A stretch of 6,274 bases of DNA, from IMG/VR virus record IMGVR_UViG_2695420597_000012; one strand, 5' to 3'. The notes below the pieces were generated by a model, which was not told the origin of the DNA, did not search any database, and saw only the letters and a program-made list of their open reading frames with translations. A program made the translations under genes and the position numbers. This document shows, piece after piece, positions 1-6,274 of this stretch; position 1 is the first letter of the stretch, and every line of letters starts with the position of its first letter. This DNA comes from a virus (Duplodnaviria; Heunggongvirae; Uroviricota; Caudoviricetes).

Positions 1-269
1 AGCCTTCAGGGAAAAATATCATCAGATGGCTGCTTAAAAAAAGAACAAATGGTAGTGTCCGCTATTGCCAGTACACCTCAGGATAGCGGTCATGTGATGC
101 CGGTTTCCCGGTAACTCAGCACCGGTATCTGAGTCAACGTTTTCTCTACTGGGTCATTTCCGATACGCCCTGCCTGCTGACAGGCTTTCATCACATCTGA
201 AAATATAGCACCCTGACTGATACTGTAGTACCTAAGGTTCCAGAAACTGTGATGTATCCGGCACAGAAA

Positions 270-288
270 AGCCCCTCCGGAGAGGGCT
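270..288 (-). other. Imperfect GC-rich stem-loop (7 bp with one bulge) followed on the minus strand by TTTCT; possible weak terminator or RNA 3' end
   Basis: agcccctccggagagggct. The unit 2 copy at 1901-1920 has one extra G, giving a perfect 8-bp stem. Confidence 0.3.
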
Positions 289-484
289 GGAGAGTGGCGC
301 TATGTGCCATTGCATGATGCCGGGTGCCTCCCGGTGAATTCAGTACCAGCACCTGAATCCGCGATTATCCCATATACCTACTCGCTGATTGCCCCTCCGC
401 ACAGGGGGATTCACCATGCCAGTTTCTTTTAACAAACTCCCCGCAAAACAGACAACTGTCAACCGTCTGAATTGTGAGACATTT

Positions 485-510
485 AAAAAAAAGGCCCGCA
501 AAAGCGAGCC
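485..510 (-). terminator. Rho-independent terminator directly after the tRNA cluster
   Basis: Minus strand reads ggctcgc-tttt-gcgggcc followed by TTTTTTTT (plus-strand A8 at 485-492, stem 493-499/504-510). It lies 15 nt after the CCA end of tRNA-Arg(UCU). Confidence 0.65.
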
Positions 511-524
511 AGGGAAAATAAGTG

Positions 525-601
525 TGGCGCGTTGTACTGGATTCGAACCAGTGACCGATTGCTTAGAAGGCAATTGCTCTGTCCGGCTGAGCTAACAACG
601 C
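525..601 (-). tRNA. argO: tRNA-Arg, anticodon UCU
   Basis: Hand-folded cloverleaf on the minus strand: acceptor GCGTTGT/ACAACGC, D-stem GCTC/GAGC, anticodon stem ATTGC/GCAAT with loop CTTCTAA, T-arm ACTGG-TTCGAAT-CCAGT, discriminator G, encoded CCA. The symbol is assigned from context (lambdoid ileZ-argN-argO cluster), not from a search. Confidence 0.8.
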
Positions 602-614
602 ATGATGCAGATAA

Positions 615-691
615 TGGACCGCCATCGGGGACTTGAACCCCGCGCAACCAGCTTCGAAGGCTGGCGCTCTTTCCTGATGAGCTAATGGCGG
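615..691 (-). tRNA. argN: tRNA-Arg, anticodon UCG (reads CGA/CGG)
   Basis: Acceptor CCGCCAT/ATGGCGG, D-stem GCTC/GAGC, anticodon stem CCAGC/GCTGG with loop CTTCGAA, T-arm CGGGG-TTCAAGT-CCCCG, encoded CCA. Unusual: position 1 is C, the discriminator is U, and A(-1) could pair with U73. Anticodon and symbol should be confirmed. Confidence 0.65.
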
Positions 692-698
692 TATGTGA

Positions 699-774
699 TG
701 GTGGCCCTTGCTGGATTTGAACCAGCGACCTGGCGATTATGAGTCGCTCGCTCTCACCACTGAGCTAAAGGGCC
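699..774 (-). tRNA. ileZ: tRNA-Ile2-like, anticodon CAU (lysidine type, reads AUA); formally could be Met
   Basis: GGCCCTT-TA-GCTC-AGTGGTGA-GAGC-G-AGCGA-CTCATAA-TCGCC-AGGTC-GCTGG-TTCAAAT-CCAGC-AAGGGCC-A-CCA. This closely resembles my recollection of E. coli ileX (tRNA-Ile2, CAU). Confidence 0.8.
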
Positions 775-814
775 GGGAGCCGCATAATAACGACGCGTAA
801 TTAATTCTTCAATA

Positions 815-1845
815 TCATCCGTTCTGGCTGACTAAATCCTGTACTTCCCGAACCGTCTGCTCAAAACGTTCAGTCTCCAGCTCAACGCCAATTGCACGAC
901 GCCCGAGCGCCAGTGCCGCTTTCACTGTCGAACCCAACCCCATGAAAAAATCTGCAATCAGGTCACCCGGACGACTGCTAGCGCTGATTATCTGCTGCAG
1001 CATTTCTGCCGGTTTTTCGCACGGATGTTTCCCGGGATAGAACTGCACCGGTTTATGCGTCCACACATCGGTATACGGCACCTGCACCGTCACGCCAAAA
1101 TACCGCCGCAGATGTTTATATTCACTCAGCAGCTCCGCATACTGCCGGTTCAGTGAGGTATACGTATCCACCAGCTGGTGGTGGAGCTTTTCCAGTTCAC
1201 CACGCCGATGCTTCTCTTCTGCCACCCGGGCAAACAGCGCCTGTAATTTCAGATAATCGCTTTCATTCGGCAACTGCCACTGACCGGCACTGAACCAGTG
1301 CGACACCATGTTTTTCTTTCCTGTGGCATCTGCAATCTGTTTTGCCGTTATCCCCAGGGCAGCTCGCGCATCACGAAAGTAAGAAATCAGCGGGGCCATC
1401 ACATGCTGTTTCAGTGCACTGCCCTTCGCCGCATACCCGGCATCTTTCGGACGATACGGCCCCTGATAATGTTCCGCGAACAGAATGCGCTCTGTGGCGG
1501 GGAAATACGCCCGCAGGCTTTCCTTGTTGCATCCGTTCCAGCGTCCGGACGGCTTCGCCCAGATAATATGGTTCAGCACACTGAAGCGTTCACGCATCAT
1601 GATTTCGATATCAGATGCCAGGCGATGACCACAGAACAGGTAAAGACTTCCGGCAGGTTTCAGCACCCGCCAGAACTGCGCCAGACACTGGTCCAGCCAC
1701 TTCAGGTAATCATCGTCGCCCTTCCACTGGTTATCCCAGCCCTCAGGCTTCACTTTAAAGTACGGCGGGTCCGTGACTATCAGGTCAACAGAATTTTCGG
1801 GTAACGACCGGATAAATTCCAGGCAGTCGGCGTTGATTAACTCAC
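815..1845 (-). pseudogene. DNA amino-methyltransferase (beta class), copy 1, missing the first ~9 codons and start codon
   Basis: Identical to 3793-4823. Motif IV DPPY and motif I DFFMGLGST are retained. The frame stays open upstream to a TAA at 1871-1873 with no in-frame ATG; the only GTG (1751-1753, used by the ORF track) lies after DPPY and has no Shine-Dalgarno. It could still be annotated as a CDS with a non-canonical start. Confidence 0.55.
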
Positions 1846-1900
1846 TAAAACAACAAAGTCCATAAGGAGTTTACTCACATCTGACAAAATCAATATAAAC

Positions 1901-1920
1901 AGCCCCTCCGGAGAGGGGCT
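1901..1920 (-). other. Perfect 8-bp GC-rich stem-loop (agcccctc-cgga-gaggggct)
   Basis: Direct inspection. Minus-strand downstream sequence is U-rich (gtttatattgatttt) but not a clean U-tract. Confidence 0.3.
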
Positions 1921-2116
1921 GGAGAGTGGCGCTATGTGCCATTGCATGGTGCCGGGTGCCTCCCGGTGAATTCAGTACCAGCACCTGAATCCGCGATTAT
2001 CCCATATACCTACTCGCTGATTGCCCCTCCGCACAGGGGGATTCACCATGCCAGTTTCTTTTAACAAACTCCCCGCAAACCAGACAACAGTCAACCGCCT
2101 GAATTGTGAGACATTT

Positions 2117-2142
2117 AAAAAAAAGGCCCACAAAAGCGAGCC
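2117..2142 (-). terminator. Rho-independent terminator after tRNA cluster 2
   Basis: Minus strand ggctcgc-tttt-gtgggcc + T8. One stem base differs from unit 1, giving a G-U pair, so the stem is kept. Confidence 0.6.
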
Positions 2143-2156
2143 AGGGAAAATAAGTG

Positions 2157-2233
2157 TGGCGCGTTGTACTGGATTCGAACCAGTGACCGATTGCTTAGAA
2201 GGCAATTGCTCTGTCCGGCTGAGCTAACAACGC
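2157..2233 (-). tRNA. argO: tRNA-Arg, anticodon UCU (copy 2)
   Basis: Identical to 525-601. Confidence 0.8.
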
Positions 2234-2246
2234 ATGATGCAGATAA

Positions 2247-2323
2247 TGGACCGCCATCGGGGACTTGAACCCCGCGCAACCAGCTTCGAAGGCTGGCGCT
2301 CTTTCCTGATGAGCTAATGGCGG
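2247..2323 (-). tRNA. argN: tRNA-Arg, anticodon UCG (copy 2)
   Basis: Identical to 615-691. Confidence 0.65.
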
Positions 2324-2330
2324 TATGTGA

Positions 2331-2406
2331 TGGTGGCCCTTGCTGGATTTGAACCAGCGACCTGGCGATTATGAGTCGCTCGCTCTCACCACTGAGCTAA
2401 AGGGCC
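2331..2406 (-). tRNA. ileZ: tRNA-Ile2-like, anticodon CAU (copy 2)
   Basis: Identical to 699-774. Confidence 0.8.
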
Positions 2407-2455
2407 GGGAGCAGAATAATAATGGTGCGTAATTAATTCTGCAATCTCATCCGTT

Positions 2456-3477
2456 TCAAACGATTAAATCCTGAACTTCCCTGACTGTCTGCTCAAAACG
2501 TCCGGTCTCCAGTTCAACGCCAATCGCACGACGCCCGAGCGCCAGTGCCGCTTTTACCGTTGAACCTGAGCCCATAAAAAAATCTGCAACCAGGTCTCCC
2601 GGACGACTGCTTGCGCTGATTATCTGCTGCAGCATTTCTGCCGGTTTTTCGCACGGATGTTTCCCGGGATAGAACTGCACCGGTTTATGTGTCCACACAT
2701 CCGTGTACGGCACCTGCGCCGTCACACCAAAATACCGCCGCAGATGCTTATATTCACTCTGCAGCTCCACATACTGCCGGTTCAGTGACGTATACGTATC
2801 CACCAGCTGGTGGTGGGGCTTTTCCAGTTCACCGCGCTGATGTTTCTCTTCTGCCACCCGGGCAAACAGCGACTGTAATTTCAGATAATCGCTTTCGTTC
2901 GGTAGCTGCCACTGACTGGCACTGAACCAGTGCGACACCATGTTTTTCTTTCCTGTGGCATCTGCAATCTGTTTTGCCGTTATCCCCAGGGCCGCGCGCG
3001 CATCACGAAAGTAAGAAATCAGCGGGGCCATCACATGCTGTTTCAGTGCACTGCCCTTCGCCGCATACCCGGCATCTTTCGGACGATACGGCCCCTGATA
3101 ATGTTCCGCGAACAGAATGCGCTCTGTGGCGGGGAAATACGCCCGCAGGCTTTCCTTGTTGCATCCGTTCCAGCGTCCGGACGGCTTCGCCCAGATAATA
3201 TGGTTCAGCACACTGAAGCGTTCACGCATCATGATTTCGATATCAGATGCCAGGCGATGACCACAGAACAGGTAAAGACTTCCGGCAGGTTTCAGCACCC
3301 GCCAGAACTGCGCCAGACACTGGTCCAGCCACTTCAGGTAATCATCGTCGCCCTTCCACTGGTTATCCCAGCCCTCAGGCTTCACTTTAAAGTACGGCGG
3401 GTCCGTGACTATCAGGTCAACAGAATTTTCGGGTAACGACCGGATAAATTCCAGGCAGTCGGCGTTGATTAACTCAC
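2456..3477 (-). pseudogene. DNA amino-methyltransferase, diverged paralog (copy 2), N-terminally truncated at the junction with tRNA cluster 3
   Basis: About 10 amino-acid differences from copies 1 and 3, a C-terminus 3 codons shorter (LIV* versus LVSQNG*), and many silent nucleotide changes. DPPY is retained; motif I is DFFMGSGST. The frame runs upstream into tRNA-derived sequence with no in-frame ATG. Confidence 0.55.
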
Positions 3478-3502
3478 AAAAGCGAGCCAGGGAAAATAAG
3501 TG

Positions 3503-3579
3503 TGGCGCGTTGTACTGGATTCGAACCAGTGACCGATTGCTTAGAAGGCAATTGCTCTGTCCGGCTGAGCTAACAACGC
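3503..3579 (-). tRNA. argO: tRNA-Arg, anticodon UCU (copy 3)
   Basis: Identical to 525-601. Confidence 0.8.
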
Positions 3580-3592
3580 ATGATGCAGATAA

Positions 3593-3669
3593 TGGACCGC
3601 CATCGGGGACTTGAACCCCGCGCAGCCAGCTTCGAAGGCTGGCGCTCTTTCCTGATGAGCTAATGGCGG
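3593..3669 (-). tRNA. argN: tRNA-Arg, anticodon UCG (copy 3, variable-loop variant)
   Basis: Same as 615-691 except plus-strand A to G at 3625 (variable loop TTGCG to CTGCG in the tRNA). Confidence 0.65.
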
Positions 3670-3676
3670 TATGTGA

Positions 3677-3752
3677 TGGTGGCCCTTGCTGGATTTGAAC
3701 CAGCGACCTGGCGATTATGAGTCGCTCGCTCTCACCACTGAGCTAAAGGGCC
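3677..3752 (-). tRNA. ileZ: tRNA-Ile2-like, anticodon CAU (copy 3)
   Basis: Identical to 699-774. Confidence 0.8.
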
Positions 3753-3792
3753 GGGAGCCGCATAATAACGACGCGTAATTAATTCTTCAATA

Positions 3793-4851
3793 TCATCCGT
3801 TCTGGCTGACTAAATCCTGTACTTCCCGAACCGTCTGCTCAAAACGTTCAGTCTCCAGCTCAACGCCAATTGCACGACGCCCGAGCGCCAGTGCCGCTTT
3901 CACTGTCGAACCCAACCCCATGAAAAAATCTGCAATCAGGTCACCCGGACGACTGCTAGCGCTGATTATCTGCTGCAGCATTTCTGCCGGTTTTTCGCAC
4001 GGATGTTTCCCGGGATAGAACTGCACCGGTTTATGCGTCCACACATCGGTATACGGCACCTGCACCGTCACGCCAAAATACCGCCGCAGATGTTTATATT
4101 CACTCAGCAGCTCCGCATACTGCCGGTTCAGTGAGGTATACGTATCCACCAGCTGGTGGTGGAGCTTTTCCAGTTCACCACGCCGATGCTTCTCTTCTGC
4201 CACCCGGGCAAACAGCGCCTGTAATTTCAGATAATCGCTTTCATTCGGCAACTGCCACTGACCGGCACTGAACCAGTGCGACACCATGTTTTTCTTTCCT
4301 GTGGCATCTGCAATCTGTTTTGCCGTTATCCCCAGGGCAGCTCGCGCATCACGAAAGTAAGAAATCAGCGGGGCCATCACATGCTGTTTCAGTGCACTGC
4401 CCTTCGCCGCATACCCGGCATCTTTCGGACGATACGGCCCCTGATAATGTTCCGCGAACAGAATGCGCTCTGTGGCGGGGAAATACGCCCGCAGGCTTTC
4501 CTTGTTGCATCCGTTCCAGCGTCCGGACGGCTTCGCCCAGATAATATGGTTCAGCACACTGAAGCGTTCACGCATCATGATTTCGATATCAGATGCCAGG
4601 CGATGACCACAGAACAGGTAAAGACTTCCGGCAGGTTTCAGCACCCGCCAGAACTGCGCCAGACACTGGTCCAGCCACTTCAGGTAATCATCGTCGCCCT
4701 TCCACTGGTTATCCCAGCCCTCAGGCTTCACTTTAAAGTACGGCGGGTCCGTGACTATCAGGTCAACAGAATTTTCGGGTAACGACCGGATAAATTCCAG
4801 GCAGTCGGCGTTGATTAACTCACAACTGGATATTTTTACAGTATTAAGCAT
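3793..4851 (-). CDS. DNA N6-adenine or N4-cytosine methyltransferase (beta-class, likely orphan, phage type), full length 352 aa
   Basis: ATG at 4849-4851 with an in-frame TGA two codons upstream. DPPY (motif IV) lies near the N-terminus and FxGxG (DFFMGLGST, motif I) near the C-terminus, the IV-then-I order of beta-class amino-MTases. No adjacent restriction endonuclease ORF. The Shine-Dalgarno is weak. Confidence 0.85.
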   Translation of the reverse strand: MLNTVKISSCELINADCLEFIRSLPENSVDLIVTDPPYFKVKPEGWDNQWKGDDDYLKWLDQCLAQFWRVLKPAGSLYLFCGHRLASDIEIMMRERFSVLNHIIWAKPSGRWNGCNKESLRAYFPATERILFAEHYQGPYRPKDAGYAAKGSALKQHVMAPLISYFRDARAALGITAKQIADATGKKNMVSHWFSAGQWQLPNESDYLKLQALFARVAEEKHRRGELEKLHHQLVDTYTSLNRQYAELLSEYKHLRRYFGVTVQVPYTDVWTHKPVQFYPGKHPCEKPAEMLQQIISASSRPGDLIADFFMGLGSTVKAALALGRRAIGVELETERFEQTVREVQDLVSQNG

Positions 4852-4944
4852 GGATCATTAAGCCTGTCTCTGATAGGCTCATTCTGCTTTTGCGCAAAGC
4901 AGTGGGCCTGAGGTTTGCTTGTGAACCCAACGCATGAGCAGATG

Positions 4945-4973
4945 GCTGGTGGGTGCCCCTAACACCCACCAGC
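4945..4973 (-). other. Perfect 11-bp stem-loop (gctggtgggtg-cccctaa-cacccaccagc), not followed by a U-tract on either strand
   Basis: Direct inspection. It lies between the terminator at 4986-5015 and the methyltransferase start. Confidence 0.5.
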
Positions 4974-4985
4974 CGCCCATTTACC

Positions 4986-5015
4986 ACAAATAAAAAAGCC
5001 TTCACTGCGGAAGGC
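4986..5015 (-). terminator. Rho-independent terminator after the 65-aa ORF
   Basis: Minus strand gccttccgcagtgaaggc (6-bp stem) followed by TTTTTTATTT. The ORF stop codon (5002-5004) lies inside the stem. Confidence 0.55.
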
Positions 5016-5199
5016 GTCTGTAACAACCGAACTGATAGTCTGCCAGACCCGCCATAACCAGCTGGGTCAGTATTAACTGGCAGCGTTCGCGTGAAAGGTA
5101 AGTATTCTGCGCTATCTCCCCGACTGTCGCCGGTTCGGTAACGCTTAATTCATTAAACACCACTCTGGCGGTTTCTGTCATATCCTGCTGTTTTAGCAT
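5002..5199 (-). CDS. Small 65-aa protein, possibly a winged-helix DNA-binding protein (PapI/FaeA-like pattern)
   Basis: ATG at 5197-5199 preceded by AAGGA 6 nt upstream (minus strand ggaaaaggaaaagacATG), with its own terminator. The segment TVGEIAQNTYLSRERCQLILTQLVMAGL resembles small winged-helix regulators. The fold assignment is by eye only. Confidence 0.4.
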   Translation of the reverse strand: MLKQQDMTETARVVFNELSVTEPATVGEIAQNTYLSRERCQLILTQLVMAGLADYQFGCYRRLPQ

Positions 5200-5317
5200 G
5201 TCTTTTCCTTTTCCGGTTAACGTGACACACCAATAACTCTTGTCGAAAAAGCCAGCAAGCTGAAAGACAGGTATTCACCGCCACCAGCGCGTTTACTGTA
5301 CTGACGCGATTTCAGTC

Positions 5318-5341
5318 ATAAAAAACCCGCCAGGCGGCGGG
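5318..5341 (-). terminator. Strong rho-independent terminator ~85 nt downstream of Q (tR'-like)
   Basis: Minus strand cccgcc-gcct-ggcggg (6 GC pairs) followed by TTTTTTAT. Confidence 0.6.
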
Positions 5342-5390
5342 GTGTAAAAAATCTTCTAACGTCAGGCATAAAACGCCCATCGTTAGAGCA

Positions 5391-5418
5391 AATTTACCAC
5401 AGATTCGGGAAAAATCAA
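5391..5418 (-). promoter_or_regulatory. Candidate sigma70 late promoter (PR'-like) just after the Q stop
   Basis: Minus strand TTGATT (5418-5413) - 16 nt - TAAATT (5396-5391). Hexamer match only; the qut site is not identifiable by eye. Confidence 0.25.
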
Positions 5419-5423
5419 CAACA

Positions 5424-6245
5424 CTATCGCGTTACCCTCTTTAACTGCCGCTCCGCCCATGCCTCTTCAATGTCAAACCGAACCACCAACGTATCGTAAA
5501 AGCGTTTCACTGATTTTTTCCACGTATCAAGCGTGATAGCACTCGTCACTTTGCATATGGCATTAAATGCCTCCGTTGATGGCAGCCTTTCACAGCCACG
5601 ACCACCACAACGCTGGCAGTCTCTGATAACAGGCATACCACGTTTTACCGACTCTTCACGATGAATGGCGACACCACGCCCACGGCAATCCTTACAGGCG
5701 GTGGAAACCTCACCCTTTCCGCCACACTCCGGACAGGCAACTTTTACCACCTCCCGATTTTTTTTCCATTCTTCCCAGTAAGACGGATACACACCTTTCG
5801 TACACTTTGCCCATACCGGCGGCTTACCATCCGGATACTGGACCTTGTTTGTAAAAACTACGCTTTCAATAAATTTTTCCCCATAGCAACAAGGGCACTG
5901 CTTTTTACTCGCTGCGCTGCGGGCATAATCCTCAAAAGCGTACGAAGCCATAATGCGCATCACTACCGGTTTTATTTCTGCCGGGAGTTTTCTTAACGCC
6001 GCCACGCGATCACACCGACTGAGTGCATATTCTGTCAGCAATTCTGTTGCCCGCTCTCTGTCATTCATACTAATGCCCATTTTCCCAAGGAACGCAGAAA
6101 ACCCCATCTCAGCCCGATTCTGTGTCATGCCCTGCGCGGCCATCACATCAGTGATACTCAGCGCATCTTTCGACGTTGAGGCCGATGCATCAGTCAGGCC
6201 GGGGGATTTTGGGGAGTAGTATTTCGGTAAATCTTCCAGTTTCAT
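5424..6245 (-). CDS. Antitermination protein Q-like (long Q family with DnaJ-type CxxCxGxG zinc-finger repeats), 273 aa
   Basis: ATG at 6243-6245, stop TAG at 5424-5426. Three CxxCxGxG-type repeats (CPECGGKG, CKDCRGRG, CQRCGGRG) plus CPCC. It sits immediately upstream of a promoter/terminator pair and the methyltransferase-tRNA late region, as in lambdoid prophages. Family assignment is from memory, not a search. Confidence 0.6.
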   Translation of the reverse strand: MKLEDLPKYYSPKSPGLTDASASTSKDALSITDVMAAQGMTQNRAEMGFSAFLGKMGISMNDRERATELLTEYALSRCDRVAALRKLPAEIKPVVMRIMASYAFEDYARSAASKKQCPCCYGEKFIESVVFTNKVQYPDGKPPVWAKCTKGVYPSYWEEWKKNREVVKVACPECGGKGEVSTACKDCRGRGVAIHREESVKRGMPVIRDCQRCGGRGCERLPSTEAFNAICKVTSAITLDTWKKSVKRFYDTLVVRFDIEEAWAERQLKRVTR

Positions 6246-6274
6246 TTTTTGACCTGCCCTTCAAGCATTATGGG

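Follow-up and report, generated by a model that had tools for sequence, protein, structure and literature searches.

An apparent tandem array of methyltransferase–tRNA modules in a Shigella prophage scaffold is very probably a scaffolding artefact

The window, by which the whole stretch of 6,274 nucleotides analysed here is meant, has its genes arranged as in the late-regulatory region of lambdoid prophages (Qin-like and Stx-type), and all genes of interest are located on its minus strand. For its description two prophages were taken as reference. P_A is the prophage located beside ompW in Shigella sonnei, with a Q gene (Q_A), a hypothetical gene, a methyltransferase gene (MTase_A) and the tRNA-Ile/Arg/Arg genes, followed by an insertion sequence (IS). 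P_B consists of Q_B, a hypothetical gene, MTase_B and the same tRNAs, followed by iraM and a SASA esterase. Other loci and contigs used for comparison are designated by L numbers. The first gene in the direction of transcription (5424..6245) codes for a putative Q-type antiterminator of 273 aa of the P_B allele (Pfam PF03589 Antiterm, E 5e-51). The ORF listing shows next a conserved hypothetical ORF of 65 aa (5002..5199), without Pfam match, which lies between Q and the methyltransferase and corresponds to a hypothetical protein in L001, L004 and L006. It is followed by the gene of a full-length predicted N6/N4 DNA methyltransferase of 352 aa (3793..4851; PF01555, E 8e-42), which is of the S. 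sonnei type (allele A), and by a tRNA cluster (3503..3752), in which ARAGORN detected tRNA(CAT), tRNA-Arg(TCG) and tRNA-Arg(TCT) in this order. According to the RefSeq annotation of homologous loci, tRNA(CAT) is a tRNA-Ile.

This module of methyltransferase and tRNAs is encountered twice more in the window, with start-to-start spacings of 1346 and 1632 nt. The middle methyltransferase gene (2456..3475; PF01555, E 2e-44), hereafter copy 2, is predicted to encode allele B and has its 5' end cut at position 3476. Its tRNA cluster (2157..2406, ARAGORN) is followed by a P_B-type region on the minus strand (1845..2156), which extends into the 3'-terminal 21 nt of an iraM homologue (+ strand, 1845-1865), matches at 100% the sequence that flanks iraM in numerous E. 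coli genomes and is collinear with L004 and L025. The remaining methyltransferase gene (815..1843) is a second instance of allele A, identical to 3793..4821, with its 5' end cut at position 1844. It is followed by a third tRNA cluster (525..774, ARAGORN) and by a P_A-type region (81..524) identical to the S. sonnei loci L007-L016. The terminus of the contig (1..80) is the end of an IS3-family insertion sequence, and these 80 nt match several IS copies in S. sonnei loci. The modules starting at 1843, 3475 and 4851 are referred to as units 1, 2 and 3, and their methyltransferase genes as copies 1, 2 and 3. Tandem Repeats Finder reported nothing on the window, the unit period being above the 500-nt limit of the program.

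Both methyltransferase alleles scored far above the gathering cut-off of PF01555 (144 bits for allele A and 153 bits for allele B, against 26.7), and the N6_N4_Mtase family has the motif order of the beta class of DNA methyltransferases. The allele A protein displays the catalytic motif DPPY near its N-terminus (residue 35) and the S-adenosylmethionine-binding motif FxGxG near its C-terminus (residue 310), which reads FMGLG in allele A and FMGSG in allele B. The S. sonnei allele thus deviates from the more usual form of this motif, present in the common allele, by a Leu at codon 312 (3922-3924 vs 2567-2569 of the window). Complete S. sonnei genomes, among them that of 53G (HE616528.1), code for the 352-aa protein of copies 1 and 3 without any change. 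Where allele B is whole, it forms a complete ORF of 349 aa, as annotated in L004, L005 and L025. In the scaffold, copy 2 has no ATG, GTG or TTG 5' of DPPY. Its frame stays open in the 5' direction across the join and through all three tRNA genes of the preceding unit (window 3475-3745, minus strand). The homologous methyltransferase gene of E. coli DLI.5a (L002, NZ_CP103972.1; locus 5426-7824) is interrupted by an insertion of IS421.

Copy 2 (minus strand, 3475..2456) was aligned with copies 1 and 3 over 1017 coding nt. The alignment revealed 42 substitutions (4.1%; 30 transitions and 12 transversions) and no indel, with 27 of the 42 located at third codon positions. Among the 38 codons that differ, 26 are silent and 12 lead to an amino-acid replacement. 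When counted by the method of Nei and Gojobori, 29 changes are synonymous and 13 non-synonymous, which corresponds to a dS of 0.137, a dN of 0.017 and a dN/dS of 0.12 (Fisher p ~1e-10 for the synonymous excess). The stop codon of copy 2 comes 3 codons earlier (CAG -> TGA), and in the spacer between stop codon and tRNAs 7 of 40 nt are different (17.5%). An earlier note on this DNA had described copy 2 as diverged at about 5% of nucleotides with few and mostly silent residue changes, as shorter by three codons at its C-terminus and as followed by a more diverged spacer, and all three descriptions were confirmed. The codon-aware comparison proposed there gave a ratio that is not near 1. That the differences of copy 2 are sequencing or consensus errors is hardly credible. 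The only element in favour of errors is the single base 647, which is possibly a mixed consensus. Against them stand the absence of any indel, the codon structure of the substitutions and their exact matches in independent genomes.

The differences of copy 2 are not spread over the gene. They are confined to its 3' 540 nt (42/540, or 7.8%), the 5' 477 nt being identical to copies 1 and 3 (P ~3e-12 for the clustering), and the edge between the two halves is a sharp mosaic boundary. The diverged 3' half is found with at least 99% identity in 581 E. coli records and with 100% identity in two complete E. coli genomes, while copies 1 and 3 reach no more than 95.1% in E. coli over this segment. To judge from these identities, it is copy 2 that carries the common allele. 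Its wide occurrence, together with an exact single-copy match elsewhere, indicates that the divergence is older than any array. The earlier note had also put forward purifying selection on copy 2. The dN/dS of 0.12 is real, but the signal predates the meeting of the copies in the assembly and is uninformative on selection acting on an array member. Almost no weight can be given to the idea of a duplication followed by divergence of copy 2 in place, with purifying selection keeping it functional as a member of the array. The low dN/dS and the third-position changes (27 of 42) would agree with it. Against it, copy 2 and its flanks are base for base a single-copy prophage gene of the complete genome CP151292.1, the 3' half is widespread in E. 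coli as given above, the differences all lie in this half behind a boundary that is common to single-copy prophages, and copy 2 lacks a start codon 5' of DPPY in the scaffold.

The tRNA blocks are nearly invariant. The block of unit 2 is identical to that of unit 1 and one base off that of unit 3 (2279 vs 3625), so that the identity of the three tRNAs across all units, as claimed before, holds for units 1 and 2 and fails by one base for unit 3. Units 1 and 3 as a whole are identical over 1347 nt except for the corresponding base in tRNA-Arg(TCG) (647 vs 3625). At this site of the variable loop, unit 3 has C (3625), like the complete S. sonnei genomes, and unit 1, otherwise of P_A type, has the T of P_B and E. 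coli (647). For the odd base 647, a true polymorphism is conceivable, as is a mixed consensus arising in a repeat. When the tRNA blocks of P_A and P_B were compared, each being single-copy in a separate complete genome, only 1 of 250 nt was different. In complete genomes, where P_A and P_B are each single-copy, the 5' half of the methyltransferase gene is likewise identical and the tRNAs are nearly so. Given this likeness among single-copy prophages, homogenisation inside an array, which had been invoked for the tRNAs, is not needed and finds no support.

The public record corresponding to the window was reached via an exact match to its Q protein. This record, CXEY01000265.1 (L033; assembly GCA_001258915.1, 6274 bp), corresponds to the whole window with the exception of window positions 3476 and 1844, where it has N and the window has T (on the minus strand at 3476). 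These two N positions coincide exactly with the two joins between units. It follows that the three copies of the window belong to three scaffold pieces: alpha (6274..3477), beta (3475..1845) and gamma (1843..1), with scaffold gap 1 at 3476 (alpha/beta join) and scaffold gap 2 at 1844 (beta/gamma join). The N seem to have been turned into a base during preparation of the window, and the scaffold joins then resemble real junctions. The missing 5' ends of copies 1 and 2 are gap or contig edges and no true truncation. The description of copy 2 as the diverged middle member of an array therefore stands for the divergence and falls for the array, both joins being N in the source record. Gene calling on CXEY01000265.1 predicted a product of 344 aa (L033 2785-3819) which spans the N. 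One tRNA cluster was counted in each of the 16 reference loci examined (16/16), and three only in L033.

At the gaps, each of the four piece ends borders on a base which is variable among paralogous prophage copies. Following CTTTTG, at the first SNP between P_A and P_B located 3' of the tRNAs (position 3476), P_A has C and P_B has T. Position 3476 coincides as well with a T/C SNP just before GAGTTAATC, where most copies have T and P_B of L025 has C. At gap 2, the base that follows TTTTAG is C in P_B and T in L003 and L022, which makes it a branch point between paralogues. L022 (GCA_001258955.1) displays a further variant at 8666-9646: its methyltransferase gene is allele-A-like, the tRNAs are followed by about 640 nt of additional sequence, and this T follows TTTTAG in an iraM-like 3' end. 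Piece ends of this type are the product of read extension through repeats. With the piece ends located on paralogue SNPs, it is understandable that the two seemingly truncated copies share their first base. Such a coincidence in the methyltransferase gene would seldom arise from two independent rearrangements.

Each piece was then matched to single-copy loci. Piece beta (3475..1845) is 100% identical to P_B of the complete genome CP151292.1 (L025), which has one methyltransferase and one tRNA cluster there and also carries the exact Q allele of the window. Collinearity with unit 2 and its flanks (3479..1845) was observed for E. coli MFDS1016424 as well (2 mismatches in 1635 nt), and the 21-nt 3' end of the iraM homologue is present in both and missing from units 1 and 3. 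Piece gamma (1843..1, and likewise 1845..1) shows 1 mismatch to the S. sonnei locus L007, including the IS3-family end at the same insertion site. This site is the one used in L007-L010 and L012-L014, and the transposase adjoining the IS end in S. sonnei loci displays HTH_Tnp_1 and rve domains. The insertion is not at that site in 53G (L011), L015 and L016, and is hence polymorphic within S. sonnei. The comparison of copies 1 and 2 with databases, as recommended in the earlier note, thus assigned them to different prophages, P_A (S. sonnei) and P_B (CP151292.1), respectively.

Piece alpha is composite. From 6274 to 5208 it is identical to L025, with 78 differences from the S. sonnei P_A between 6101 and 5331, and from 5330 to 3477 it is identical to complete S. 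sonnei genomes (L007). Difference maps against L025 and L007 place the change from P_B to P_A type within a run of 123 nt that is common to both prophages (5208..5330). On this comparison, alpha itself is judged to be chimeric, with a Q gene of P_B type, P_A type from 5207 onward and the switch in the common run. Two draft contigs which carry the Q allele of the window (L030 and L034) stop exactly at the position equivalent to 5207. Further stretches identical between P_A and P_B are 479 nt of the 5' half of the methyltransferase gene, approximately 280 nt of tRNAs and, upstream, 384 nt in addition to the 123 nt.

A real tandem array would consist of three head-to-tail methyltransferase–tRNA modules, the middle one acquired from a second prophage by recombination, with one or a few bases at the joins left unassembled. 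Some elements speak for it. The pieces were linked by the scaffolder in a consistent orientation, and a scaffolder needs some read-pair support. If the N are read as T, the joins look as if formed by microhomology, namely TTGTG (3479-3475) and G (1845). A different, apparent partial tandem duplication of 454 bp is seen in E. coli CB7453, of which the genome is assembled at chromosome level (L001), suggesting that rearrangement at the locus may occur. There, a 5' methyltransferase fragment of 369 nt comes first, after which the sequence starts again at 86 nt before the ATG and continues through a full gene (NZ_CM144245.1; ~5426-5880). Against a real array, the following was noted: no junction is sequenced, with N at both joins; one and the same methyltransferase breakpoint would have to serve both joins, and all piece ends lie on paralogue SNPs; a single base in 1347 nt separates unit 1 from unit 3; and piece alpha is chimeric. 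Short-read assemblers are unable to place near-identical long copies separately without re-using reads.

The joins were also missing from every collection searched. None of 5,426 complete E. coli genomes contained either of them (0 covering at least 80% of either junction query), and the contig collections (genome, viral and metagenome) yielded 0 matches to a degenerate pattern designed for the two joins. For the truncated ORFs of 309 aa and 312 aa, the exact matches were only contig-edge or frameshifted single copies, none of them in an array. Overall, a real array of this kind is considered very improbable, and its specific version, namely a true three-unit MTase-tRNA(Ile/Arg/Arg) array formed in the S. 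sonnei isolate when two resident prophages recombined by both illegitimate and homologous events, is slightly less probable still. Of the suggestion that a cassette of a second phage lineage was recombined into the array, the origin from P_B was retained (100% identity to CP151292.1). The recombination into an array was not, both joins being single-N gaps that are absent from the collections. The microhomology reading of the joins was dropped for the N at both joins of the source record, and with it two models built on real junctions: the derivation of the first join from the second by loss of 286 bp between TTTTGTG and TTTTAGTG, and the insertion of a 1632-bp circle from P_B by crossover in the common 5' half of the methyltransferase gene.

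In all likelihood, the 'middle copy' is the methyltransferase gene of P_B lying beside the P_A copy across two scaffold gaps, the window being a scaffolding artefact and the array not a real feature. The window represents a single scaffold from a scaffolded draft assembly, and the isolate behind it is very probably Shigella sonnei. This isolate would harbour two related lambdoid (Qin-like) prophages, P_A and P_B, presumably at separate loci. The assembler and the gap filler would have walked through the repeats shared by P_A and P_B and halted at the first base that differs, after which the scaffolder would have chained the pieces head to tail over two gaps of unknown size, each represented by a single N. 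The divergence of the 3' half of copy 2 (7.8%, dN/dS 0.12) would be inherited, and ordinary for two functional alleles that belong to separate phage lineages, and the identical 5' half would be due to lambdoid mosaicism, as present also between single-copy prophages. Base 647 and the exact halting points are accounted for by this model only qualitatively.

The scaffold may have been produced from short reads with scaffolding and gap-filling software. A gap written as a single N is a convention of SSPACE/GapFiller-type tools. The sibling assembly GCA_001258955.1 (L022) contains eight N runs, one of which is a single N. In the description of the Sanger pipeline, SSPACE and GapFiller are presented as greedy and able to produce false joins, joined contigs being set apart by N (PMC5320598); the accession GCA_001258915.1 was not found in the supplement of that paper. 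GapFiller lengthens contig ends, and the gaps that it leaves unclosed lie mainly in repeats with equally supported alternatives (PMC3446322).

The biological value of the window is low, as there is nothing uncommon in two lambdoid prophages that reside together and have mosaic methyltransferase alleles. If the three-unit array were true, it would provide a triple dose of rare-codon tRNAs in a Q-dependent late transcript. The value is rather methodological. A draft scaffold in which N is replaced by a base mimics a seamless tandem array with microhomology junctions, and genuine divergence between paralogues in such a scaffold mimics selection on a duplicated gene. In windows taken from scaffolded drafts, gap characters are best kept or flagged, and repeat findings are best compared with the source record first.

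Among known systems, IS-flanked tandem amplification of prophage segments occurs in Shigella, as for the amplification of stx in S. dysenteriae type 1. The window resembles this case in that a defective lambdoid prophage region of Shigella is concerned with an IS nearby. It differs from it at the junctions, which in the stx arrays are sequenced and located at IS copies, whereas the window has N gaps and no IS between units. The scaffold shares with the false duplications and false joins at gaps of short-read drafts (SSPACE scaffolding with extension by GapFiller) the single-N gaps, the pieces repeating across a gap, the extension that halts at differences between paralogues, the contig that ends in an IS and the chimeric path through a common stretch. 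The late region of Stx-type lambdoid phages (Q, DNA methyltransferase and the ileZ-argN-argO tRNAs of Stx2a phages and phiP27) has the same gene order and homologous genes, with matches at 92-94% for Stx2a-converting phages and at 87% for phiP27. In contrast to them, the window contains no stx genes. Behind the tRNAs, the relatives in E. coli and S. sonnei carry iraM and/or a SASA-family esterase, together with the lysis genes. Such modules are found at separate loci in many E. coli genomes, with a median of 3 places per genome. Compared with the mosaics of co-resident lambdoid prophages, with which it shares the sharp edges between identical segments and segments diverged by 5-8%, the window shows nothing unusual and is an ordinary case.
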